Assembly (NCBI GenBank): GCA_963934255.1
Contig: CAWVXU010000082.1
Span: 1 to 11,913 of the forward strand
Direction: 5' to 3'
Length of the DNA stretch: 11,913 nt
Source of the DNA: an uncultured Fibrobacterales bacterium
GTDB taxonomy: Bacteria; Fibrobacterota; Fibrobacteria; Fibrobacterales; CAWVXU01
The position numbers were made by a program, and so were the translations under genes. Below, piece after piece: positions 862 through 11,855 of the stretch (within the stretch, counting starts at the first letter, position 1; every line of letters starts with the position of its first letter). The notes beneath the pieces were generated by a model. The model worked only from the letters and a program-made list of their open reading frames with translations. It was not told the origin of the DNA and searched no databases.

Positions 862-1572
862 TTAAGGTGATGTATTTAGTGTGTAATCAATCACAGTATT
901 GTAGTTCTCTCCTTGCGCGTCTTTTATGTCTGAAATCCCTTCATATTTTGTGAGATACTTTTTGCTTTTGTACCATACTTTTAATTCATCTACAAATAGT
1001 TTTAAGAACATATTTGACGGCTGCATGGTGACTAAATACTGGCCATCACTTAGGAGCTTTGCTTTTAATGTGAAGCTAAATGCCTTGCCATACTCAGGAA
1101 GAAATATTTCAACTTGACGATCAGACTGAATAATGTTGTCAAAGTTTTGTAGAATGTAAAAGTGTATACCTGAATCCCAAGTAAAATCCGATTTCGCCTG
1201 AATCACCTTGGTGTAAGATTCTTTTTTAGAATTAAATTGTACTTTAACACCAGCTCTTGTGTGCTTAAAGGAATAAGAGATGTTGTTGCGCTTATCCGTG
1301 AAATCAATCTCAGGGTGCCATCCTGTTGTAGGGATTTTGAGACTCTTTGTTGCAAAGACTTTGCTTTTAGCATCTATGTACTCGACATCAAAAGCTCCGG
1401 TTTCTTCATTTGTAGTAGTGCGTACTTCTGTATACTGAGGCTTTTTGGAGTCAGGAGAAGAGGCTTTGCCCACCCATTGGGAAACAAGGCTCGATGCCAC
1501 TACAACCGAGATTGCTAGAGCCATAAAAATCAACTGAAAACGGGCTATTTTAAGTAATTGTGAAAAAAGCAT
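862..1572 (-). CDS. Exported hypothetical protein (236 aa), divergent from the CarH operon
   Basis: Long ORF. The ATG at 1572 is preceded on the minus strand by GAAAAGGAAATTGCT (AAGGA Shine-Dalgarno), so it is preferred to the track start at 1641. The N-terminus is basic then hydrophobic (KIARFQLIFMALAISVVVAS), like a signal peptide. The body looks beta-rich. Confidence 0.75.
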   Translation of the reverse strand: MLFSQLLKIARFQLIFMALAISVVVASSLVSQWVGKASSPDSKKPQYTEVRTTTNEETGAFDVEYIDAKSKVFATKSLKIPTTGWHPEIDFTDKRNNISYSFKHTRAGVKVQFNSKKESYTKVIQAKSDFTWDSGIHFYILQNFDNIIQSDRQVEIFLPEYGKAFSFTLKAKLLSDGQYLVTMQPSNMFLKLFVDELKVWYKSKKYLTKYEGISDIKDAQGENYNTVIDYTLNTSP

Positions 1573-1601
1573 AGCAATTTCCTTTTCATCATGATATATT
1601 G

Positions 1602-1622
1602 TGTGTAGATTTAATCTATACA
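1602..1622. promoter_or_regulatory. Inverted repeat in the 68-bp divergent intergenic region: candidate CarH/LitR operator and/or overlapping divergent -10 elements
   Basis: TGTGTAGATT-T-AATCTATACA, with arms matching 9/10. Each arm carries a TnnACA-type hexamer and a TAGATT (TAnnnT) -10-like element on its own strand. It sits directly upstream of a MerR-family regulator. Confidence 0.55.
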
Positions 1623-1640
1623 TTTTTTTTGAAACATGCA

Positions 1641-2561
1641 ATGGCTGAAAACAATTATATGAGTATTGGAGATTTAGCTAAAAGAAGCGGGCTGAGTGTT
1701 TTTCGTCTTCGAGCATGGGAATCTAGATATGGTTATCCCGCCCCTCAAAAGCTGCAAAGCGGACACAGAAGGTTTCTACAGGGGGATCTACAAAAACTAC
1801 TTATCGTACAGCAATTGCTAGAAAATGGTTTTAAAATTTCCAAAATCATAGATAAAAGTAAAGAAGAATTGATTGACCTATTGCCAAGGGAATCAACAAC
1901 TCTTCAAACTTTATCTTTGCCATTAAAATCAAAAGAAAGTGCTGACCCTCACAAACTTTTACCCACAATAAAACAAGCGCTTCAACATATAAACGCCTTT
2001 GATGAATCTGCCTTACATGATATCTTTGCAGAGGTGTGGGGGAACTCAACACCGTTAGATTTTTGTGAGAATTTTGTAACACCATTTATATTTCAATTAG
2101 GCGATCAATGGGAAAATGGGTTTCTTGATATAGCCATGGAACACTTTGCTTCAAAGTGTCTTGAAAATTTTATTGATACAAAATGGCGTGAAGCCAATAG
2201 ACTATTAAACGGAAAACCTTTACTACTAGGGATGCTTCCGAATGATTTCCACTCTTTCGGACTGCAAATGTGCGCTCTCCTGGCTGTGTATGAAAACATA
2301 AAGATCGTTTATCTCGGTGAAAGAACACCTATTGAAGCAATCGAAACTGCGACTAGAGACCTTGATACACTTGGTGTTGTGTTGAGTATTTCTAAAACAA
2401 TGACTGACAAAGTGACTATGGATTATTTAAAACAACTAAGAAAAGAAATACCTAAAGAAATATCCATAGTGATAGGTGGAGGTGGCGCTTACAAAATTAA
2501 AGGTATAGATGAAATTACACAATTTAGGGAGTATATATCATGGGTTCAAAAAAGAAAATAG
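1641..2561 (+). CDS. carH: MerR-family cobalamin-binding transcriptional regulator, CarH/LitR class I (AdoB12 photoreceptor type)
   Basis: N-terminal MerR winged HTH (MSIGDLAKRSGLSVFRLRAWESRYG...SGHRRF). Helical cap with W-x9-EH (WENGFLDIAMEH, nt 2109-2144). Rossmann B12 domain with DFHSFG (nt 2244-2261), YLGERTP, VLSIS and IGGGG. Start is ATG 1641 or ATG 1659; the track's TTG 1599 is unlikely. Confidence 0.88.
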   Translation: MAENNYMSIGDLAKRSGLSVFRLRAWESRYGYPAPQKLQSGHRRFLQGDLQKLLIVQQLLENGFKISKIIDKSKEELIDLLPRESTTLQTLSLPLKSKESADPHKLLPTIKQALQHINAFDESALHDIFAEVWGNSTPLDFCENFVTPFIFQLGDQWENGFLDIAMEHFASKCLENFIDTKWREANRLLNGKPLLLGMLPNDFHSFGLQMCALLAVYENIKIVYLGERTPIEAIETATRDLDTLGVVLSISKTMTDKVTMDYLKQLRKEIPKEISIVIGGGGAYKIKGIDEITQFREYISWVQKRK

Positions 2562-3817
2562 CAGTTATCGGTGGTGGAGTTTCCGGGATATCTGCTGCAC
2601 TCATGCTTCATAATAATTACGATGTTGAAATTTTTGAAAAAGAACATTACGTCGGTGGACATACAAATACCATAGAAATTACAGAGGGTGCAGATAAAGG
2701 TCTTGGCGTGGATACAGGGTTTATTGTCTGTAATAATTGGACATACCCTAATTTTCACGCAATGATGAAAAAGCTGGATGTTGAGATTAGAGATACTTGT
2801 ATGTCATTTGGATATCATGATGAAGTGTCTGGATTTCAATATGCAGGGACTGATCTCAATGGCTTGTTTGCCGATCGTATAAATTTGTTGAATCCCAAAA
2901 TGTATCGCTTGTTAAAAGATGTATACACCTTTAATAAGAATGCTAAAAAGGATTTAGAGGCTCAGCGGAATTTTGATGGAATGACTCTGAAGTCATATCT
3001 TGATGAACTCAAAGTATCTGATATATTTATCATGCAATATTTGGTGCCCATAGGTGGAGCAATTTGGTCTTCATCCAACGCAACAATGTTGGATTTTCCA
3101 GCCTCATTATTTTTGCACTTTTTTAAGAATCATGGGTTATTAAATATTCTCAATCGGCCTCAATGGCAAACGGTGGCTGGTGGTTCTGCTACCTATGTGA
3201 AAAAGTTTTTAAAAGTGTTCAAAGGCTCGGTTAAAATCTCGTCAAAAATTGAAAAAGTATCTCGCAATGAGACTGGAGTAATCATACATACACCAGAAGG
3301 TGTGTTTCAATATGACCAAGTTATTTTCGCAACTCATGCCGACCAAATACTGCCACTATTAGAAAACCCAACATCAGAAGAAATTACAGCCTTGACGCCT
3401 TGGAATTATATTGAGAATCATACTGTTCTTCATACTGACACCTCGGTTATGCCCACTAATAAAAGAGCTTGGGCTTCATGGAACTTCACTAAAGAACCAG
3501 AAGTGAAAGATTCGTTTCCAGTATCAGTAACCTATGATATGGGTAGGTTACAGGGCTTAAAGACAGACGAAAATTATTTGGTAACATTAAATAGAAACCA
3601 AACTATTGATCCATCCAAAGTAATCCGTGAATTCAGATATTTCCACCCAAATTTTGATTTAGGGACTCTTGGCACACGTAAAGCTATTTGGAATTTAAAT
3701 GGAAGCCAAAACACCTTTTATACTGGCTCATATATGGGGTATGGTTTTCATGAAGATGCAGTAAAATCCTCTGTTGATATGGTCAATGAATTCTTTGATG
3801 GGGAGTCGTTTGAATGA
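2540..3817 (+). CDS. FAD-dependent oxidoreductase, COG2907/amine-oxidase-like (UfaD/RSP1091- and Rv0449c-like putative fatty acid desaturase)
   Basis: Dinucleotide-binding motif IAVIGGGVSG. Family motifs GGHTNT, VDTGFIV..NWTYPNF, PQWQTVAGGS, RAWASWN and GYGFHEDA. SD AGGGAG at 2526-2531. Overlaps the carH 3' end by 22 nt. Confidence 0.88.
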   Translation: MGSKKKIAVIGGGVSGISAALMLHNNYDVEIFEKEHYVGGHTNTIEITEGADKGLGVDTGFIVCNNWTYPNFHAMMKKLDVEIRDTCMSFGYHDEVSGFQYAGTDLNGLFADRINLLNPKMYRLLKDVYTFNKNAKKDLEAQRNFDGMTLKSYLDELKVSDIFIMQYLVPIGGAIWSSSNATMLDFPASLFLHFFKNHGLLNILNRPQWQTVAGGSATYVKKFLKVFKGSVKISSKIEKVSRNETGVIIHTPEGVFQYDQVIFATHADQILPLLENPTSEEITALTPWNYIENHTVLHTDTSVMPTNKRAWASWNFTKEPEVKDSFPVSVTYDMGRLQGLKTDENYLVTLNRNQTIDPSKVIREFRYFHPNFDLGTLGTRKAIWNLNGSQNTFYTGSYMGYGFHEDAVKSSVDMVNEFFDGESFE

Positions 3818-4578
3818 TTTCTCACTTGACGGGTACAACATGGCATAAGCGCTATACACCAGTAGAACATGAGTTCTCCTATCCATTGGCGTACCTCCAA
3901 GTAGATATTGATGCCAATAATAATGATTATGATACAGGTTCACGCTTGTTGAAGTTTGATCAAAATGATTACATACCACAGTATAAAGGGTCGCTTTATC
4001 AGAGAATAGGAGATTGTTTACTTTCTCATGATAGTCCCCTAGAATTTAATCAAGTGAAATTGATTACTATGCCAAAGGTGTTTGGTTTTTGTTTTAACCC
4101 GGTAAACTTTTATCTGCTTATCCAAGATGGAACAAAAGTCGGTCTCATAGTTGAAATCAACAACACTTTCGGTGAGAAACATACTTATGCATACTCAGGA
4201 AACCCCTTAGATGTCCTAATTAGAATGGATAAGACTTTTCACGTTTCTCCATTCAATAATGTAGCGGGATTTTATGAAGTAAAAATCAGTGAAGCAGCTG
4301 GAGTAGTTCATGTTGATATTGATCTACATCGGGACGGCCAAATGATATTCAAGTCAAATTTGAATTTAAAGCCAAGGGCGAAGACAATTAGCTTTTTAGA
4401 TGTGGTGAGAAATCTACCCAATCTATTACTTACGACGGTTCGGATTGGAAAACAAGCAGCCATGTTATACTACGTCAAAAAAATGGATGTTTATGACCTC
4501 CCTGAACCTCAAACAAAGTATACGCTTAAATGGAAGAAACCAGTATTTCTTCAAAGAATACTTACGGGAAAAATTTAA
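3814..4578 (+). CDS. DUF1365 family protein (UfaO/RSP1090- and Rv0448c-like)
   Basis: Motifs H.R..P..H.F.Y, FGFCFNPVNFY, EINNTFGEKHTY and KTFHVSPF. ATGA overlap with the upstream gene. Usual position between the COG2907 gene and cfa. Confidence 0.88.
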   Translation: MISHLTGTTWHKRYTPVEHEFSYPLAYLQVDIDANNNDYDTGSRLLKFDQNDYIPQYKGSLYQRIGDCLLSHDSPLEFNQVKLITMPKVFGFCFNPVNFYLLIQDGTKVGLIVEINNTFGEKHTYAYSGNPLDVLIRMDKTFHVSPFNNVAGFYEVKISEAAGVVHVDIDLHRDGQMIFKSNLNLKPRAKTISFLDVVRNLPNLLLTTVRIGKQAAMLYYVKKMDVYDLPEPQTKYTLKWKKPVFLQRILTGKI

Positions 4579-4599
4579 CACTTGTTAAAAGGAAATAAA

Positions 4600-5865
4600 A
4601 TGACAGCAATTTTATCACAAAACGAAACTCAATCGACAATGTCAATGACCCATAGAGTCAGTTTATGGTTTTTAAATAAGCTATTGTCAAAAGCGAAAAA
4701 TGGAAAGCTTGAGATTGTCCTTCCCAATGGCAAACAATTATTTTTTGGAGAATTAACTTCCGCCAAAACAGTTGAACTCAACATTAACGAGTGGGCATTT
4801 TTCACTAAAATTTTAGTAAGTGGTGATGTTGGTTTTGGTGAGTCATTTGTTGATGGTGATTGGTCTAGTCCAGACCTCACGGCCCTTCTACACTGGTTTG
4901 CTATTAATCAAACGACGATGGAAGACCAAAATTTTGCTTTTAGCAAGATGGGTGATTTGGTAAATTGGTTCGGTCATAAGTTAAAGGCCAACACCATTGA
5001 TGGTAGTCGTCAAAACATTAGTGATCACTATGATCTCAGTAACGATCTATATGAAGCATTTTTGGATCCGCATATGCAATATTCTTGCGCACTTTGGAAA
5101 ACTCCGAGTGAGTCTCTAGAGGAAGCTCAAGAAAACAAAATGCGTGCAGTTCTTGATAAATTACAACTCAAACCTGGGATGAGAGTTCTTGAAGTTGGTT
5201 CTGGTTGGGGTGGACTTGCTGTCATGGCTGTTAAGGAATATGGCGTTCATGTTAAATCCATTACCTTGTCGGAGCAACAACTAAAAGTTGCCAAGCAAAG
5301 AGCAAAGGATGAAGGCGTCCAAGATTTGATTCAGTTTAAGTATCAAGATTATCGTCACGAGTTAGGCAAATTTGACCGTGTGATGTCAGTTGAAATGGTG
5401 GAAGCTGTTGGACATGAAAACTTATCTGTTTATTTTAAAAAAATTGAAGAGGTTTTAAAACCTTCTGGACTTGCTGTAGTCCAAGTGATAACGACTCCAA
5501 ATTCCAAGTACCACACTTATCGTAAAAATTGTGATTGGATCCAAAAATACATCTTCCCAGGTGCGGTTTGTCCATCACTTGAGTCAATGGTATCTGCTAT
5601 GACTTCTAATACAAAGCTCATGATACACGATCTTGAAAATTTTGGAACACATTACGCTCGAACTCTTCGAGAATGGAACCACCGTTTCCATAACAATTGG
5701 AAAGAAATTCAAAAGTCAGGTTTTGATGAGCGTTTTAGGAAAATTTGGGAATACTACTTGTGTTATTGTGAGGCGGGATACGAGGCAAGGTCACTAGATA
5801 ATTTACAGCTTGTCATTAGTAAAGAAAATAATGAAAGCTTGAATGATTTTGGGCGGGGTCGCTAA
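4600..5865 (+). CDS. cfa: SAM-dependent fatty-acyl-phospholipid methyltransferase, cyclopropane-fatty-acid synthase family (UfaM/UfaA1-like)
   Basis: Motifs NISDHYDLSNDLY, MQYSCA, the SAM motif LEVGSGWGGLA, SVEMVEAVG, WIQKYIFPG, HYARTLREW and WEYYLCYCEAG. ATG 4600 has SD AAGGA at 4589-4593. Confidence 0.92.
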   Translation: MTAILSQNETQSTMSMTHRVSLWFLNKLLSKAKNGKLEIVLPNGKQLFFGELTSAKTVELNINEWAFFTKILVSGDVGFGESFVDGDWSSPDLTALLHWFAINQTTMEDQNFAFSKMGDLVNWFGHKLKANTIDGSRQNISDHYDLSNDLYEAFLDPHMQYSCALWKTPSESLEEAQENKMRAVLDKLQLKPGMRVLEVGSGWGGLAVMAVKEYGVHVKSITLSEQQLKVAKQRAKDEGVQDLIQFKYQDYRHELGKFDRVMSVEMVEAVGHENLSVYFKKIEEVLKPSGLAVVQVITTPNSKYHTYRKNCDWIQKYIFPGAVCPSLESMVSAMTSNTKLMIHDLENFGTHYARTLREWNHRFHNNWKEIQKSGFDERFRKIWEYYLCYCEAGYEARSLDNLQLVISKENNESLNDFGRGR

Positions 5866-5870
5866 GGTTC

Positions 5871-6332
5871 ATGATGAAAATATTCTCTAAAATTTCAAAC
5901 ACCATAGTTTCAGAGCTAAAAAGCGGCTGGAGTATGCAGAGCATTGCCTCTTCGATTGTTGTTGGAGCTGCAATTGGAATCTTTCCAGTACTTGGCTCCA
6001 CAACTGCTTTGGTTTTTGTAGCGGCTAAGTATTTAAAGTTAAATCAGGTGGTTTGCCAGGCTGTGAATTATTTAGTGTATCCACTACAAATTATGCTTTG
6101 GCTTCCCATGATGTTTTTGGGGGCAAGCCTTCTAGGGATTGAACTTGAATTCAATTCCATAGAGGAGTTTAAAGAATTATTAACTCAGAACACTATGGTC
6201 TTTTTCACTGAGATCATTTGGTATCAATTAGCGGGTGTATTTGTTTGGGCTCTACTTGTGTTGCCTTTTGGTGCCGCACTTTACTGCTTTATTATTTCTA
6301 TTCTTATAAAAAATAACCAGGATCAAAAATGA
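5871..6332 (+). CDS. DUF2062 family membrane protein
   Basis: SIASSIVVGAAIGIFPVLGSTT...LKLNQVVCQAVNYLVYPLQI matches the DUF2062 pattern. Several hydrophobic segments. Starts 5 nt after the cfa stop. Confidence 0.75.
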   Translation: MMKIFSKISNTIVSELKSGWSMQSIASSIVVGAAIGIFPVLGSTTALVFVAAKYLKLNQVVCQAVNYLVYPLQIMLWLPMMFLGASLLGIELEFNSIEEFKELLTQNTMVFFTEIIWYQLAGVFVWALLVLPFGAALYCFIISILIKNNQDQK

Positions 6333-7117
6333 CATTATTTATTGGATTTATTATTCCACTTATTTCCGTACTGTTTTTCTTTTTGTTGTATAAAAAATTA
6401 AACAATCCAAGTGTGATTGATATTGCTTGGGGCATTAATGTCTTTCTTCCTGTGAGTTGGTACCTCTCTCAATATTACTCAACAACGAGTACAATCTCTA
6501 TTGTGTTTTGTTTACTTGCCATGTTATGGGGTCTCAGGCTGACATCTCATATTGGCTATCGTAATTTGACCGAGGAAGTTGATGGTAGATACCATGAGTT
6601 CGAACGCAAATGGAAAGAGCAGGATTCTAACTATAAGAATCCCGACCGAAATTACTTGCAATTTTTCCTTATTCAATCAACGATGTCTTTTATGTTGAGT
6701 TTACCATTTTACTTTGCGTTAAAGAATCCCTTGCCTTCATCAAGTATTCTTTGGACGATTTTTGCTTTGATATTTATTGCGTTGGTATTTGAGGCGATTG
6801 CTGACTATCAATTATTATCATTCAAAAGGTCAAAGGTTAAAACCTCACGAGTTTGTAAGACAGGGCTTTGGCGTTACTCAAGACACCCCAATTATTTTTT
6901 TGAAATTTCAATTTGGGTATTGGTAGCGGTTGTGTCACTTTGGTTGCCATGGGGTTTTGTCTTTATTGGACTTCCTCTGATGATTGGGTTCTTCATATTA
7001 AACGTCACCGGTATTCCAGCAGCTGAAGCTCAAGCAATCAGTACTCGTGGGCAAGAATATAAAGACTATGTTGAACAAACCTCTTCAATAATTCCATGGT
7101 TCCCTAAAAAACTCTAA
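6329..7117 (+). CDS. DUF1295 family integral membrane protein (steroid 5-alpha-reductase/ICMT-like superfamily)
   Basis: Motifs IDIAWG, LWGLRL, DGRY, EAIADYQL..FK, GLWRYSRHPNYFFE and Y..Y...TS..IPWFPK. ATGA overlap with the upstream gene. Confidence 0.88.
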   Translation: MTLFIGFIIPLISVLFFFLLYKKLNNPSVIDIAWGINVFLPVSWYLSQYYSTTSTISIVFCLLAMLWGLRLTSHIGYRNLTEEVDGRYHEFERKWKEQDSNYKNPDRNYLQFFLIQSTMSFMLSLPFYFALKNPLPSSSILWTIFALIFIALVFEAIADYQLLSFKRSKVKTSRVCKTGLWRYSRHPNYFFEISIWVLVAVVSLWLPWGFVFIGLPLMIGFFILNVTGIPAAEAQAISTRGQEYKDYVEQTSSIIPWFPKKL

Positions 7118-7153
7118 CAATGAGTACAGTTAGATGTGTTAGGTGGATAATAT

Positions 7154-7528
7154 ATGTTCGAATACTTTAAGCTTCAAAATAAGCTCATAGCAACTCAGCT
7201 TGGGTTTTCACTTGCCTTAACAGTAATCATAACGGGCCAACTTTTAGCTTTTGACTTGCCTTTGATTCATACCGCTTTAAGTGTCATTCCCATGGGCGCC
7301 TATTCTTATTCTATTGTGTATAAGAAGTCAAAGCAAACGAGTCTCTTGGCTTATTGGGTGCCTGTCGGAATTTGGTCTCTATTTTTATTGTATAATTGGA
7401 TGATTGGGCATGAATCTAATGACCCGATTCAAGATGTAATATCGCTTTTATTTAAAATAAGTTTGCCATCTTATGTTCTGACATTTGTCTGGGTAACGTC
7501 GCCATGGTCTCCTAAAAATAACGTTTAG
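7154..7528 (+). CDS. Small hypothetical membrane protein (about four TM helices)
   Basis: 124-aa ORF with four hydrophobic stretches. SD-like AGGTGG at 7141-7146. Starts 36 nt after DUF1295. No family recognised. Confidence 0.65.
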   Translation: MFEYFKLQNKLIATQLGFSLALTVIITGQLLAFDLPLIHTALSVIPMGAYSYSIVYKKSKQTSLLAYWVPVGIWSLFLLYNWMIGHESNDPIQDVISLLFKISLPSYVLTFVWVTSPWSPKNNV

Positions 7529-7631: not shown

Positions 7632-7655
7632 AAGGCTCCAAAAGAAGCCTTTTTT
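7632..7655 (+). terminator. Possible weak intrinsic terminator between the lipid operon and pnp
   Basis: AAGGCT (7632-7637) pairs with AGCCTT (7646-7651) and runs into a T6 tract (7650-7655). The stem is short and an alternative pairing exists (see findings). Confidence 0.4.
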
Positions 7656-7698: not shown

Positions 7699-9810
7699 AT
7701 GTCTGATATGTTAAGTAAAATCGAAGAGTCCGTAGAGTATGCTCCGGGTAAATCTGTCACTTTTGAAACTGGCCGTTTGGCTAAGCAAGCATCTGGCTCA
7801 GTAGCTGTAAAAGCTGGCGATGCATTCCTACTTTGTACTATGTGTTATGGTGGCGAGTCTTCAATGGGCTTTTTCCCATTAACTGTTGATTACCGAGAAA
7901 AAGCATATGCTGCTGGTAAATTCCCTGGTGGATACTTCAAACGTGAAGCAAGACCTACTGACGCAGAAGTTTTAACTGCTCGTCTTATTGACCGTCCAAT
8001 TCGCCCAATGTTCCCTGAAGGATTCATGCGCGAAGTTCAAGTTATCTTAAATGTTTTGTCTTATGATAAAGATCTACCAATTGATACATTTGGCATCTCT
8101 GCTGCATCAGTTGCAGTTGGACTTTCAGAAGTTCCATTTGAAGAGCAAGTAGCGGCTGTACGCGTTGTTAAAAATGGTGATGAATACCTTATCAATCCTG
8201 ATCACGAAACTTCAGAAGCTGGAGAACTTGAGATGATCCTTGCTGGTACTGCAGAATCTGTAGTAATGGTTGAAGGTGGTGCATGGGAAGTTCAAGAAGC
8301 TGATATCGTTGCTGGTATTCAAGCGGGACACGAAGCAATCAAAAAACTTGTTGCTGCTCAAAACGCTTTGATTGCTAAAATCAATCCTGTTAAAAAAGAA
8401 TTCGTATTACCAATTGTTGACAAAGAATTATACGCTAAAGTTGAAGAGCTTGTTGTTGCAAAACTACGCGAAACTTTCCACACTCCAATGGTTAAAACTC
8501 ATCACTACCCTGCAATGGCCGCTATCAAAGACGAGCTTCTTGCAACACTAGGTGAAGAGTATGCAGATCGCGCAAAAGAAATCAAAGGTTACTTTGCTGA
8601 CGTTGAGCGTGTTGAAATGCGTAACCAAATCCTTAATGAACAACTTCGTATCGACGGACGTGGCCCAGCTGATATCCGTGCAATCGAAATTGAAAACCAA
8701 GTACTCCCTTCTGTACACGGTTCAGCTCTTTTCCAACGTGGTGAGACTCAAGGTCTTGTTGCTGCGACTCTTGGCACTAAAGACGACGAGCAACACATCG
8801 AGACTCTTGGTGGAACTATCCACAAAAACTACAACTTACACTATAACTTCCCTCCTTTCTCTGTTGGTGAAGTAAAACGCACAGGTTCTGTATCTCGCCG
8901 TGAAATTGGTCATGGCCAATTAGCTGAACGTTCACTTAATCCTGTACTTCCTCATCCTGAAGATTTCCCATACACAATTCGTCTTGTGTCTGAGATCCTA
9001 GAATCTAACGGTTCTTCATCTATGGCTTCTGTTTGTGGTGGTTCACTTGCTCTTATGGACGCTGGTGTTCCAACTAAAGCACACGTTGCGGGTATCGCAA
9101 TGGGCATGATTTCTGAAGGTGACAAATACCAAATTCTTTCTGATATCACTGGTACTGAAGATCACCTTGGTGATATGGACTTCAAGATCACTGGTACTAA
9201 AGAAGGTGTGACTGCTTTCCAAATGGATATCAAAATCAAAGGTATCACTGCTGAACTTATGTCTGAAGCTCTTATTCAAGCAAAAGCTGGCCGTAACCAC
9301 ATCCTTGGTAAAATGGACGAATGCATGTCTGAACCTCGCCCACAGGTTTCAGAAAAAGCACCAGCGATTATCTCTCTCAAAATTGATTCAAGTAAGATCC
9401 GTGACATTATCGGACCTGGAGGAAACGTTATCCGTGGAATCCAATCAACTACAGGTACTAATCTATCAGTAGATGACAATGGTAACGTAACTATCGCTGC
9501 TCCAACTCGCAAAGCCGGTGATGTTGCTCTTAAAATGGTCCAAGAGATCGTTGCAGAAGCAGAAGTTGATAAAGTATACATGGGTAAAGTGAAATCAGTT
9601 GTGAACTTCGGTGCATTTATTGAAATCCTTCCTGGTAAAGAAGGTCTACTTCATATTTCAGAAATCCAACATGAGAAAACTGACAAAGTTGAAGATGTTC
9701 TTTCTGTAGGTGATGAGCTTGAAATCAAATGTATTGGTGTTGACCCTCGCGGCAAGATCAAACTTTCTCGTAAAGCTTTACTTCCAAGACCAGAAGCACA
9801 AGAAGCATAA
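7699..9810 (+). CDS. pnp: Polyribonucleotide nucleotidyltransferase (PNPase)
   Basis: Motifs FETGRLAKQA, FFPLTVDYREK, LIDRPIRP, HGSALFQRGETQ, RREIGHG, ESNGSSSMASVCG and DHLGDMDFK, then KH (IIGPGG) and S1 (FGAFIEILPGKEGLLHISEI) domains. Codon bias is typical of a highly expressed gene. Confidence 0.99.
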   Translation: MSDMLSKIEESVEYAPGKSVTFETGRLAKQASGSVAVKAGDAFLLCTMCYGGESSMGFFPLTVDYREKAYAAGKFPGGYFKREARPTDAEVLTARLIDRPIRPMFPEGFMREVQVILNVLSYDKDLPIDTFGISAASVAVGLSEVPFEEQVAAVRVVKNGDEYLINPDHETSEAGELEMILAGTAESVVMVEGGAWEVQEADIVAGIQAGHEAIKKLVAAQNALIAKINPVKKEFVLPIVDKELYAKVEELVVAKLRETFHTPMVKTHHYPAMAAIKDELLATLGEEYADRAKEIKGYFADVERVEMRNQILNEQLRIDGRGPADIRAIEIENQVLPSVHGSALFQRGETQGLVAATLGTKDDEQHIETLGGTIHKNYNLHYNFPPFSVGEVKRTGSVSRREIGHGQLAERSLNPVLPHPEDFPYTIRLVSEILESNGSSSMASVCGGSLALMDAGVPTKAHVAGIAMGMISEGDKYQILSDITGTEDHLGDMDFKITGTKEGVTAFQMDIKIKGITAELMSEALIQAKAGRNHILGKMDECMSEPRPQVSEKAPAIISLKIDSSKIRDIIGPGGNVIRGIQSTTGTNLSVDDNGNVTIAAPTRKAGDVALKMVQEIVAEAEVDKVYMGKVKSVVNFGAFIEILPGKEGLLHISEIQHEKTDKVEDVLSVGDELEIKCIGVDPRGKIKLSRKALLPRPEAQEA

Positions 9811-9849
9811 ACGTTTTAGCTTTTGACTTTGGTCTTAATGACTTAATTC

Positions 9850-9893
9850 ATTTAAAAAAAGCCCTACTCAATTGAGTAGGGCTTTTTTTAAAT
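9850..9893. terminator. Bidirectional rho-independent terminator downstream of pnp
   Basis: ATTTAAAAAAAGCCCTACTCAATTGAGTAGGGCTTTTTTTAAAT is a perfect 44-bp palindrome with a GC stem flanked by A7 and T7 tracts, about 40 nt after the pnp stop. Confidence 0.93.
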
Positions 9894-10175
9894 ATAATCC
9901 GGATTTTTACTGAGACCTAGCTTATTAACAGGGTCCTTTATTAATTGATGTTAAAATTCTAATCCATTCATTCTCGGCATACTCATGCCGAGCAAGATTA
10001 AAAACGATTGTGGTACTTTATTGTTCCTTAGTTTGGTCGTTGGGATACCACCATACTGAAACCTGTCTAAAACCTTAACGACTTGATCATAAAATTGAGC
10101 CGATTTGAAGAGAATTTTAAAAATGAGAATGATATCACCGATCAGGGTAAACTTTGGAATATCCAGAACTTTCAA
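9888..10175 (-). pseudogene. Decayed single-domain response regulator (CheY/Rcp1-like receiver) remnant
   Basis: The translation KLRNNKVPQSFLILLGMSMPRMNGLEF*HQLIKDP follows the receiver pattern LILLD-x-x-MPRMNGLEFL-x-x-L-x-x-DP. The phosphoacceptor Asp is Gly (GGC), the expected Leu is TAA (9951-9953), the acidic pocket is eroded (LIGD) and the C-terminal half is absent. Confidence 0.7.
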
Positions 10176-10206
10176 TGATTGGTTAAAATTTTTGTAGATT
10201 TAGATT

Positions 10207-11469
10207 ATGAAAATACAACAAACAGAACTTCCTAATGGCGTCGTCGTCATCACTGAATCCCAATCAGCCTTTGCCTCTGCAACTATAGGTGTTTGGGTTG
10301 AAAATGGCTCTCGCCATGAAACACCAGAACTTAACGGTGTGTCACATTTTTATGAACACATGGTCTTTAAAGGCACTCAAAAGCGTGACCCTTTAGAGCA
10401 GGTTCAAGCCATCGAAGCAAAGGGTGGATATATCAATGCCTATACCACTCGCGACCATACTTGTTTTTATACCAAAGTAGTCGAACAAGAGATCGGTGTT
10501 GCTACCGATGTATTATGTGATATGATTAATGCACCATTACTCGAAAAAGAAGAATTCACTAAAGAAAAAGAAGTGATTTTAGAAGAAGTTCGCGCAAGTA
10601 TTGATGCACCAGAAGATATCATTCACGATCTTTTTGCAGAAGCGCTTTGGGGCCAAACGGGACTAGGACAGCCTATTGCTGGTTATCTCAAAACGGTGAA
10701 AAGTATTGACATTAAAGATCTCAGATCTTATCAAACCAAAGTCAAATCCAAATTTCGAGTGGTTGTTTCTGCTGCTGGTGCTGTGAATCATAAGAAATTT
10801 GTAAAGATGGTTGAAGAGGCATTAAATACTCAGAAATCTTTGAAAAGTCACAAAGCAAAATTCCAACCACCAATTCCCAAACATTTTGTTAAGAAAAAAG
10901 ATGTTCAACAATGTAATGTGGTATTAGGTACTGCAATTGGAGCCACAGACCGACGTCAGCAGATAGCAATGAACATTGTCAATAGCATCTTTGGTGATGG
11001 TATGGCGAGTCGTTTATTTCAAGTAATTCGTGAAGAGCATGGTTTGGCTTATAGTGTTTATTCCTGCATGGATAACTATTCGGACACGATGTGTTTTAGT
11101 TTGTGCATGACTCTTGAAGACAAGAAGTTTGAGCAAGCGATGCAAATCCTCAACGATGAGATTTGCAAATTTAAGACCGATGGTGCAACTCAAGAAGAAT
11201 TTGATCAAGCCAAAGACTCCCTAAAGGGTGGATTACAATTAAGTCTTGAGTCAACAAGTGCTCGTATGAATTTCATGGTACGTCAATTCTTACGACGTCC
11301 GAGTGAAGAGATTTTAAAGCCGGTACAGATTTTAAAATTAATTGATGAAGTGACTCTTGATGATGTTAATTCTCTTTTACCTGAGATCTTCAATAAAAAG
11401 GATTGGGCGTCCGCTTTGATCCAGCCTAAAGATTCTAAGCTATCGGTTAAAAAGTGGTTGAAGTTTTAA
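10207..11469 (+). CDS. M16 family (pitrilysin/processing peptidase-like, M16B) zinc peptidase
   Basis: GSRHE...GVSHFYEHMVFKGT contains the inverted zinc motif HxxEH. Also INAYTTRDHTCFY, KEKEVILEE and SRLFQVIREEHGLAYSV. A position downstream of pnp is common for this family. Confidence 0.95.
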   Translation: MKIQQTELPNGVVVITESQSAFASATIGVWVENGSRHETPELNGVSHFYEHMVFKGTQKRDPLEQVQAIEAKGGYINAYTTRDHTCFYTKVVEQEIGVATDVLCDMINAPLLEKEEFTKEKEVILEEVRASIDAPEDIIHDLFAEALWGQTGLGQPIAGYLKTVKSIDIKDLRSYQTKVKSKFRVVVSAAGAVNHKKFVKMVEEALNTQKSLKSHKAKFQPPIPKHFVKKKDVQQCNVVLGTAIGATDRRQQIAMNIVNSIFGDGMASRLFQVIREEHGLAYSVYSCMDNYSDTMCFSLCMTLEDKKFEQAMQILNDEICKFKTDGATQEEFDQAKDSLKGGLQLSLESTSARMNFMVRQFLRRPSEEILKPVQILKLIDEVTLDDVNSLLPEIFNKKDWASALIQPKDSKLSVKKWLKF

Positions 11470-11855
11470 AATCTTTCGTGGGCGAGTCCCGCATTTGGAT
11501 TTATGGTTATGGGGTCGAAGGTCAGTCAAGTTTTCGATTTTTCAAAAGTCATGGGTTTGATGTTGGGGTGATTGATGGCAACTCTGAGCTGATTGTGGAG
11601 GAAGCAAGTCGTAGTGTTTTAGGTCAAGATGTTTCGGTGTTTTTCTCCAGTTGTGACTCGCATGATTTAATTATTCGTAGTGCGGGTATATCTCCTTTAA
11701 AGCCTGAGATTCAGCAAGCACTCAAGTGCGGTGCTCGCATTAGCTCTCAACTTAATATCTTCGCTTTATTGTGTCCGCTTCCTGTGGTGGCTGTGACAGG
11801 GACGATGGGTAAGGGGACTACATGCTCTGTGCTCAAGCAGCCATGCCGAGGCTAG
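11454..11855 (+). CDS. murD: MurD-family UDP-MurNAc-L-Ala:glutamate ligase, N-terminal fragment only (similarity ends near 11840)
   Basis: IWIYGYGVEGQS, DLIIRSAGISP and the P-loop VVAVTGTMGKGTT are present. The GTG start overlaps the peptidase end. After SVLKQ the frame reads PCRG-stop and the expected GNIG motif is missing in all three forward frames. Confidence 0.75.
   Translation: MVEVLKSFVGESRIWIYGYGVEGQSSFRFFKSHGFDVGVIDGNSELIVEEASRSVLGQDVSVFFSSCDSHDLIIRSAGISPLKPEIQQALKCGARISSQLNIFALLCPLPVVAVTGTMGKGTTCSVLKQPCRG

Follow-up and report, generated by a model that had tools for sequence, protein, structure and literature searches.

Introduction

Whether a vitamin B12 photoreceptor can place the chemical modification of membrane lipids directly under the control of light is the question raised by a stretch of DNA from an uncultured marine Fibrobacterales bacterium (the window; 11,913 bp, GenBank assembly GCA_963934255.1), in which carH, a gene for a CarH-type regulator, heads a run of closely packed genes resembling those of furan fatty acid synthesis. 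The window is the entire contig C82 of a 2.67-Mb genome that is 92% complete, and the sequencing runs in which it occurs bear the label of a marine or a seawater metagenome. The original prediction, made from the letters of the DNA, was that this lipid module is wired to an adenosylcobalamin (AdoB12) light switch. In the current study, we consider it somewhat probable that the locus encodes a circuit in which light releases the CarH repressor, leading to membrane photoprotection via a furan-type fatty acid; that CarH in some way controls the genes behind it is in itself very probable. It is a variant of a known sun-protection circuit in which known parts are rewired, and not a new kind of system. 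What is new here is a predicted operator with a second site in the genome, a regulator swap within the phylum, and a LolA-like barrel protein travelling with the module.

The CarH-type regulator

The carH gene (1641–2561, forward strand, ATG start) encodes 306 amino acids, with a MerR_1 domain (PF13411, E = 3e-11) and a B12-binding_2 domain above the Pfam cut-off, followed by a B12-binding domain that scored below it (26 vs. 32.1 bits). The DNA-binding helix of the MerR domain carries RAWESRY at residues 24–30, a motif like RxWERRY. W157-x9-E167-H168 is intact and is unchanged in all four close homologues, and the Rossmann B12 motif reads D202-x-H204-x2-G207, S249 and G279-G282, with Ser at the T/V position. 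CarH has been defined by W-x9-EH together with D/ExHx2G/Px41SxT/Vx22-27GG, and W-x9-EH tells CarH from CarA (PMC9304148; this and most other papers are cited here and below for the parts of their text available to us). Three of the four elements of the SignatureFinder set (GxxW, EH, GxxH and GxxxP; PMC11796333) are present. The sequence matched T. thermophilus CarH in the PDB (E = 3e-17), and the top Foldseek matches of the structural model (pLDDT 71.5) were all T. thermophilus CarH (E = 1e-15). The protein does not have the layout that marks class II LitR, a four-helix bundle without a Rossmann B12 motif, since the Rossmann domain with His204 is present. Motifs and fold agree with the original view that the operon is headed by a CarH of class I, the AdoB12 type, and they suggest that the protein would bind adenosylcobalamin.

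The regulator shares its domain order, W-x9-EH, D/E-x-H and fold with the CarH/class I LitR proteins of T. thermophilus (PDB 5C8D/5C8E), Bacillus megaterium and the Myxococcales (PMC9304148), and its own promoter likewise has predicted TnnACA-type repeats, one full and two pseudo-repeats, phased at 11 bp. Its identity to known CarH is only about 22%. By the narrow NCBIfam equivalog model NF052513 (84 bits, cut-off 400), it would be a divergent CarH member at best, and among 1971 candidates only three other proteins matched it at E ≤ 1e-20. A full CarH was found in none of the 40 nearest relatives, which fits a recent gain without proving it.

A predicted operator and its second genomic site

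A 21-bp palindrome with 9 of 10 pairs matching lies at 1602–1622, 18 bp 5' of the carH ATG, and is the predicted CarH operator over both divergent promoters. Three 11-bp phased repeats on the forward strand (1591–1623) read TATATT, TAGATT and TATACA at the TnnACA position, so that only the third is a full repeat and the other two are pseudo-repeats. TATATT may double as a -10 box. The CarH repeat consensus is nnnnTnnACAn, and weak operators of this sort are bound by myxobacterial CarH, in Sorangium (PMC9304148).

A look-alike of the palindrome was first noticed by a loose pattern scan. With a weight matrix trained on the window palindrome alone, the site at C108:1803 scored 21.9 bits, a value reached in none of six Markov-simulated genomes, and the next-best site in the genome scored 14.3 bits. 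The C108 site is intergenic and lies 22 bp 5' of a gene whose product is a lipoprotein of 466 aa carrying three fasciclin domains, the only fasciclin in the genome by BLAST; site and gene together span C108:1803–3246 (L133). The window and C108 sites are identical at 22 of 28 nt, including the upstream TATATT, and both run pseudo-repeat, pseudo-repeat and full TnnACA repeat in 11-bp phase. The presence of one other strong palindrome site in the genome suggests a real regulon, in which CarH would be expected, from the sequence of the sites, to bind at 1591–1623 and at C108.

A fasciclin target finds independent support elsewhere. For comparison, 90 other CarH-like loci were assembled (11 genomic and 79 metagenomic, the latter being the best 80 of 465 with the window's own copy, L040, removed; many are short), and fasciclin genes stand directly 5' of carH in nine of them, which fall into 8 of the 32 sequence groups formed at 55% identity. 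The published RpoE regulon of R. sphaeroides includes the fasciclin RSP_1409 (PMC7074977), and two fasciclin genes of M. kansasii are light-induced, their orthologues being SigK targets (PMC9861118, PMC7509140).

The palindrome might instead belong to another regulator, for example a TIGR02147-like cassette 5' of the fasciclin gene, leaving carH a mere passenger. The C108 site does come after a cassette made up of a gene that we take to be TIGR02147-like and a lipoprotein gene, and the exact palindrome occurs in no non-self locus among 172; the homologues L041/L042 (33%) lack it and have different neighbouring genes, and the close homologues P0002–P0004 come without DNA context. Nevertheless, the arms were found 5' of none of 13 TIGR02147-like paralogues, both arms fit TnnACA at a site 18 bp from carH, and the linkage of fasciclin and carH recurs, so that we regard this explanation as very improbable.

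The candidate lipid-modifying enzymes

Directly behind carH, the flavin adenine dinucleotide (FAD) oxidoreductase gene (2540–3817, forward strand; PF01593 Amino_oxidase/PF13450 NAD_binding_8) encodes a candidate UfaD-like fatty-acyl desaturase, an assignment based on gene order (PMC7380195). The product is 49% identical to that of the gene in the same slot of a related genome, G140, and 34–41% identical to those of six other clusters; COG2907 was the label given in the original prediction, and the families used here are from Pfam and NCBIfam. The DUF1365 protein (3814–4578, forward strand; PF07103, E = 2e-49) is a candidate UfaO-like, furan-ring-forming enzyme, as UfaO homologues carry DUF1365 (PMC7380195). 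The methylase (4600–5865, forward strand; PF02353 CMAS, E = 9e-90) is a candidate UfaM-like member of the S-adenosylmethionine-dependent Cfa superfamily, which scored below the NCBIfam cut-offs for Cfa (NF008686, 320 vs. 400 bits) and CfaB. In a tree of 24 rows (the short row L082 omitted, the window row biased in composition), it shared a clade (support 96/91) with 11 enzymes, each encoded in an oxidoreductase-DUF1365 cluster, and this clade excludes the Cfa enzymes of E. coli, Vibrio and Clostridium as well as five stand-alone alphaproteobacterial enzymes. In this tree, which covers one of the three enzymes for which a phylogeny had been proposed as a check, the methylase thus groups with ufa-cluster enzymes and away from E. 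coli Cfa.

The candidate desaturase, DUF1365 and methylase genes stand together, as in the Ufa pathway, and in the order of R. palustris ufaD-ufaO-ufaM (RPA2571–2569), which suffices for synthesis of the furan fatty acid 9M5-FuFA (PMC7380195). The account of the R. sphaeroides Ufa enzymes in the original prediction, as makers of this acid under sigmaE/ChrR, agrees with the papers (PMC7380195, PMC7074977). Compared with the pathway under sigmaE-ChrR in R. sphaeroides and R. palustris (PMC7380195, PMC7074977), the window holds the same three families in the R. palustris order, and a fasciclin belongs to the predicted regulon, whereas a putative B12 photoreceptor replaces the singlet-oxygen anti-sigma switch. 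The window also adds a barrel gene and two membrane protein genes to the Ufa set, and no source of the substrate was recognised in the genome. These membrane proteins are a DUF2062 protein with three hydrophobic segments (5871–6332, forward strand; PF09835) and a steroid 5-alpha-reductase-like DUF1295 protein (6329–7117, forward strand; PF06966, E = 7e-50, and PF02544), possibly, by its family, a lipid reductase.

The same module under other regulators

DUF1365 was found in 5 of 151 genomes of a sample of the phylum, and the CarH alignment matched in full length only in the source genome, three further matches covering the cobalamin domain only. In G140, the module has the same order, with identities of 49% for the oxidoreductase, 39% for DUF1365, 40% for the methylase, 36% for DUF2062 and 36% for DUF1295, and it is divergent from genes for an extracytoplasmic function (ECF) sigma factor, a protein with a ChrR cupin, a photolyase and a homologue of the window's barrel protein. 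In G063 and G146, the module adjoins an ECF sigma factor with RskA, and in G136 neither a sigma-ChrR nor an ECF-RskA type regulator was found within the 19 kb fetched. DUF1295 is common to all four related modules, each of which is closed by a second methylase that the window module does not have. Neither the ChrR cupin nor RskA had a match in the source genome. This synteny shows that CarH occupies the slot of sigmaE-ChrR or ECF-RskA, whichever way the swap went. An esterase gene lies near the ECF-RskA stretches of G063 (L125:7332–9413) and G146 (L127:15006–16510), with a truncated-globin gene in G063.

In M. tuberculosis, the genes Rv0449c–Rv0446c presumably have the same order beside sigK/rskA. 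The mycobacterial SigK-RskA system resembles the present case in having fasciclins, MPT70/MPT83, as core targets (PMC7509140, PMC9861118), and the ECF-RskA pairs of G063 and G146 stand beside the lipid module; it differs in that its signal is unknown and in that the source genome has no RskA match.

The divergent barrel protein

The gene divergent from carH (862–1572, reverse strand, ATG at 1572) encodes 236 amino acids. It had been described as an exported protein sharing a 68-bp control region with carH, and the product indeed begins with one hydrophobic, signal-like segment, followed by a predicted open beta-barrel, with 68 bp between the two ATGs. The model (pLDDT 94) aligned in VIA-align with the DUF1849 structure 6ntr (Z = 11.7, rmsd 4.4, 194 aligned) and with the LolA structure 8t5j (Z = 9.8, rmsd 4.5, 140 aligned), a shared fold that shows no function. 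No Pfam or NCBIfam family matched the protein, and none was common to 144 members of its family, which numbers 446 relatives at E ≤ 0.001; an Atlas search with a homologue returned unnamed clusters, with recognition below the threshold. The gene adjoins the module in all five module-bearing genomes of the phylum sample. Five further copies in the phylum have no ufa neighbours in the 12–16 kb fetched around each, and no member of the family occurs at the 90 other CarH loci; therefore, the link between barrel and module is not obligate. Based on its model and family, the protein is a candidate periplasmic lipid carrier of an undescribed family.

The proposed circuit and its alternatives

In the circuit that we favour, CarH would bind adenosylcobalamin in the dark, oligomerise and occupy 1591–1623, and the bound protein would block its own operon, the divergent barrel gene and, at the second site, the fasciclin gene of C108. 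Visible light would then break the Co-C bond and release all three units, as in the mechanism of characterised CarH proteins. The UfaM-, UfaD- and UfaO-like enzymes would methylate, desaturate and oxygenate the unsaturated acyl chains of phospholipids, yielding a methylated furan fatty acid that, judging from family, gene order and clade, would scavenge singlet oxygen. The module itself would be an old cassette, placed under sigmaE-ChrR or ECF-RskA in other lineages of the phylum. Characterised CarH proteins act on crt genes, whereas the targets predicted here are genes for lipid modification, for a barrel protein and for a fasciclin. The predicted operator also differs from those of known CarH in being a strong palindrome in which each strand has one full repeat. 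For the central claim of the original prediction, the class I CarH at the head of the operon, the operator-like element recurring once and the methylase clade speak in its favour, while the absence of a recognised source of the UfaM substrate speaks against it.

A number of observations weigh against this circuit, beginning with the regulator and operator. The GxxH element reads NxxH, likewise in three close homologues, and Glu, not His, directly follows W157. The genome contains a PduO-family adenosyltransferase gene and a B12-dependent MetH-like gene, but the PduO match falls short of the NCBIfam cut-off (101 vs. 108 bits), and BtuB was not found over the cut-off in a profile search of the genome. 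The single full TnnACA repeat per strand is fewer than in the Thermus and Bacillus operators, and in matrix scans the operator site was absent 5' of the photolyase genes on contig C23. It is conceivable that the regulator senses the supply of cobalamin or a partner protein, and not light directly, in the manner of CarA or of class II proteins. The sub-threshold B12-binding domain, the score far under the CarH equivalog, the replaced glycine of GxxH and the lack of a clear BtuB are all in line with this idea, which is opposed by the W-x9-EH that separates CarH from CarA, intact and unchanged in the homologues (PMC9304148), and by the Rossmann B12 domain, which class II proteins lack (PMC9758184) and which is present here. 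On balance, we find direct sensing of light by CarH the better account, and sensing of cobalamin or a partner distinctly unlikely.

The remaining points against the circuit concern the enzymes and their substrate. The comparisons took in cluster-borne enzymes, with no characterised UfaM, UfaD or UfaO among them; since the tree contains no characterised Ufa protein, the UfaM-like call is one of guilt by association. In searches of the genome, FabA stayed below the cut-off and only FabZ was found, a single ORF has a ketosynthase motif (C40:12958–14187), no membrane or His-box desaturase was detected (PF00487, zero matches), and FabX was not found, the PF03060 match not being FabX-like. The protein with this match is, by sequence, presumably IMP dehydrogenase-like. 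As no FabA, second ketosynthase, desaturase or FabX was found, the genome shows no recognised route to cis-vaccenate, the substrate of UfaM; the substrate may be scavenged, may come from a missing or unrecognised gene, or may be a different one. The FadL match is weak (E = 9e-4). In favour of the circuit, COX1 is present, indicating an aerobic organism.

These data leave room for a circuit in which CarH does confer light control but the enzymes make something other than 9M5-FuFA, either because another chain is used (scavenged or of another length) or because reduction by DUF1295 leaves the acyl chain methyl-branched or modified in some other way. Such a product would agree with the lack of a recognised cis-vaccenate route in a genome 92% complete, with identities to other clusters of only 24–49%, and with the presence of DUF1295 and DUF2062, which lie outside the R. 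sphaeroides pathway as described (PMC7380195). On the other hand, the gene order equals that of R. palustris RPA2571–2569, sufficient for 9M5-FuFA (PMC7380195), a methylase of a marine Halomonas, encoded in a cluster of three consecutive genes, yielded the UfaM product (PMC12089945), and 8% of the genome is missing. We therefore rate a different product as comparatively unlikely, though it deserves more weight than the alternatives concerning the regulator. A bolder version, which we mention as a long shot, is that the organism has no unsaturated fatty acid synthesis and that light induces both capture and armour: unsaturated chains scavenged from a source such as algal particles would be handed by the barrel and fasciclin proteins to the UfaM/D/O-like enzymes, which would convert them to a lipid that quenches singlet oxygen.

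Occurrence of the CarH-lipid pairing

The oxidoreductase gene is divergent from a W-x9-EH CarH in 15 of the 90 other loci, all of one GC-rich lineage, in which the spacer between carH and the oxidoreductase gene contains TGTnnA in 11-bp phase at 15 of 15 loci, with three in phase at 12 of 15. The same CarH-lipid pairing is found on a plasmid of Azoarcus sp. KH32C. The enzymes of the window are 24–49% identical to those of other clusters. Uniqueness of the pairing was rejected based on its recurrence in the GC-rich lineage and on the Azoarcus plasmid. The original prediction knew of no characterised example; this still stands in that we found no published class I case, although the pairing itself is not rare. 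In the library of papers searched, we found no report that ufa or fasciclin genes are controlled by a CarH of class I, and furan or cyclopropane is not mentioned in the available text of PMC9304148, PMC11796333 and PMC8156234.

Light control of ufaM by the B12-independent class II LitR has been published (PMC9758184; also PMC8508746), and what had been stated beforehand on this Pseudomonas regulator agrees with the papers (PMC9758184). In Pseudomonas putida and P. mendocina, a LitR-family repressor (PplR/PmlR) likewise adjoins and light-controls an FAD oxidoreductase gene and ufaM, with 25- to 33-fold induction, but this repressor is independent of B12 and released by a LOV protein, its operator is T(G/A)TACA-N12-TGTA(C/T)A, and a photolyase gene belongs to the cluster (PMC9758184).

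Two further arrangements were seen. At L052:1609–4900, CarH is followed by a second-type methylase and DUF1295, with neither oxidoreductase nor DUF1365 in the 5.8 kb of that locus. On Roseobacter-group plasmids (L137, L138 and L139), a stand-alone Cfa-family gene lies behind an ECF sigma gene and near DUF3141, and its product forms a clade of its own.

Gene layout and transcription

The original reading of seven co-directional genes, with their order and all six junctions, was reproduced by an ORF check. The oxidoreductase gene overlaps carH by 22 nt and joins DUF1365 in an ATGA; the methylase gene, with an ATG start, follows after 21 nt, and an alternative in-frame TTG at 4582 would shrink this gap to 3 nt. 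DUF2062 follows after 5 nt, DUF1295 is joined to it by an ATGA, and a gene for a 124-aa membrane protein (7154–7528, forward strand) comes 36 nt later. Longer TTG starts for carH and the divergent gene are unlikely because their homologues (P0005 for the latter) align from the given ATGs. The 124-aa protein has four matches only, all at least 90% identical, no Pfam or NCBIfam family and no counterpart in the related modules of the phylum; it is counted with the module by spacing only.

A terminator-like hairpin with a T run (7632–7651, forward strand), 5' of pnp, is the likely end of the operon, but a weak one, because such sites in the region are at chance level (3 found vs. 5.1 expected). 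A sigma-70 promoter scan was discarded for the same reason (29 sites vs. 23.3 expected). Contigs from RNA libraries (three runs, two studies) span carH/oxidoreductase (2307–2691), methylase/DUF2062 (5790–6059) and DUF2062/DUF1295 (6144–6427). They also cross the convergent boundary at 708–1009, they give neither strand nor level, and the shares in two of the runs are small; as this boundary is bridged too and carry-over of DNA is possible, the contigs were rejected as evidence of co-transcription.

Outside the module, positions 2–853 hold a 5'-truncated gene for a CsgG/LpoB-like and DUF5683 protein, which converges on the divergent gene with a gap of 8 bp and has a 50% identical paralogue on contig C8. 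On the other side (7699–11855) lie pnp, an M16 peptidase gene and an N-terminal fragment of MurD (133 aa), which ends at 11855, short of the contig end; the gene may be broken, or the assembly may be wrong at this point.

Photolyase and carotenoid genes

Searches with Pfam and NCBIfam profiles bore out the initial remark that the window has no carotenoid or photolyase gene. The genome contains four photolyase-family genes, three clustered on C23 and one on C138. On C23 (24131–29438, L134), a gene for an alternative sigma-70 factor is followed on the same strand by FAD-domain-only, photolyase and DPRP/CryB-like genes, a group that may form a separate light regulon. The C138 photolyase gene (2–1030, L135) is truncated at its 5' end by the contig edge, with its promoter off the assembly, and its product shares 57% identity with the photolyase encoded next to the module in G140. 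No crtI was found over the cut-off in a profile search of the genome, and a single SQS/PSY gene between housekeeping genes (C43:4232–5311, L136) is best read as squalene synthase (156 bits, under the cut-off). The C23 photolyase-family genes and the SQS gene were rejected as members of the regulon, having no site in either matrix scan; the C138 gene lacks its 5' DNA.

Conclusions

With the circuit proposed here, B12 photoreceptors would govern membrane lipids and envelope proteins in addition to pigments, in a small and testable regulon of two sites and three transcription units. The divergent CarH with its compact palindromic operator could serve as a new optogenetic part, and the barrel family of 446 members gains its first functional hypothesis. 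One cassette under three unrelated switches within one phylum suggests that the switches report the same stress, an idea that bears on the signal of SigK-RskA and on the role of bacterial fasciclins. If light does induce both capture and armour, the occurrence of the same cassette under CarH, sigmaE-ChrR and ECF-RskA would make photo-oxidative damage to lipids a likely signal of SigK-RskA.

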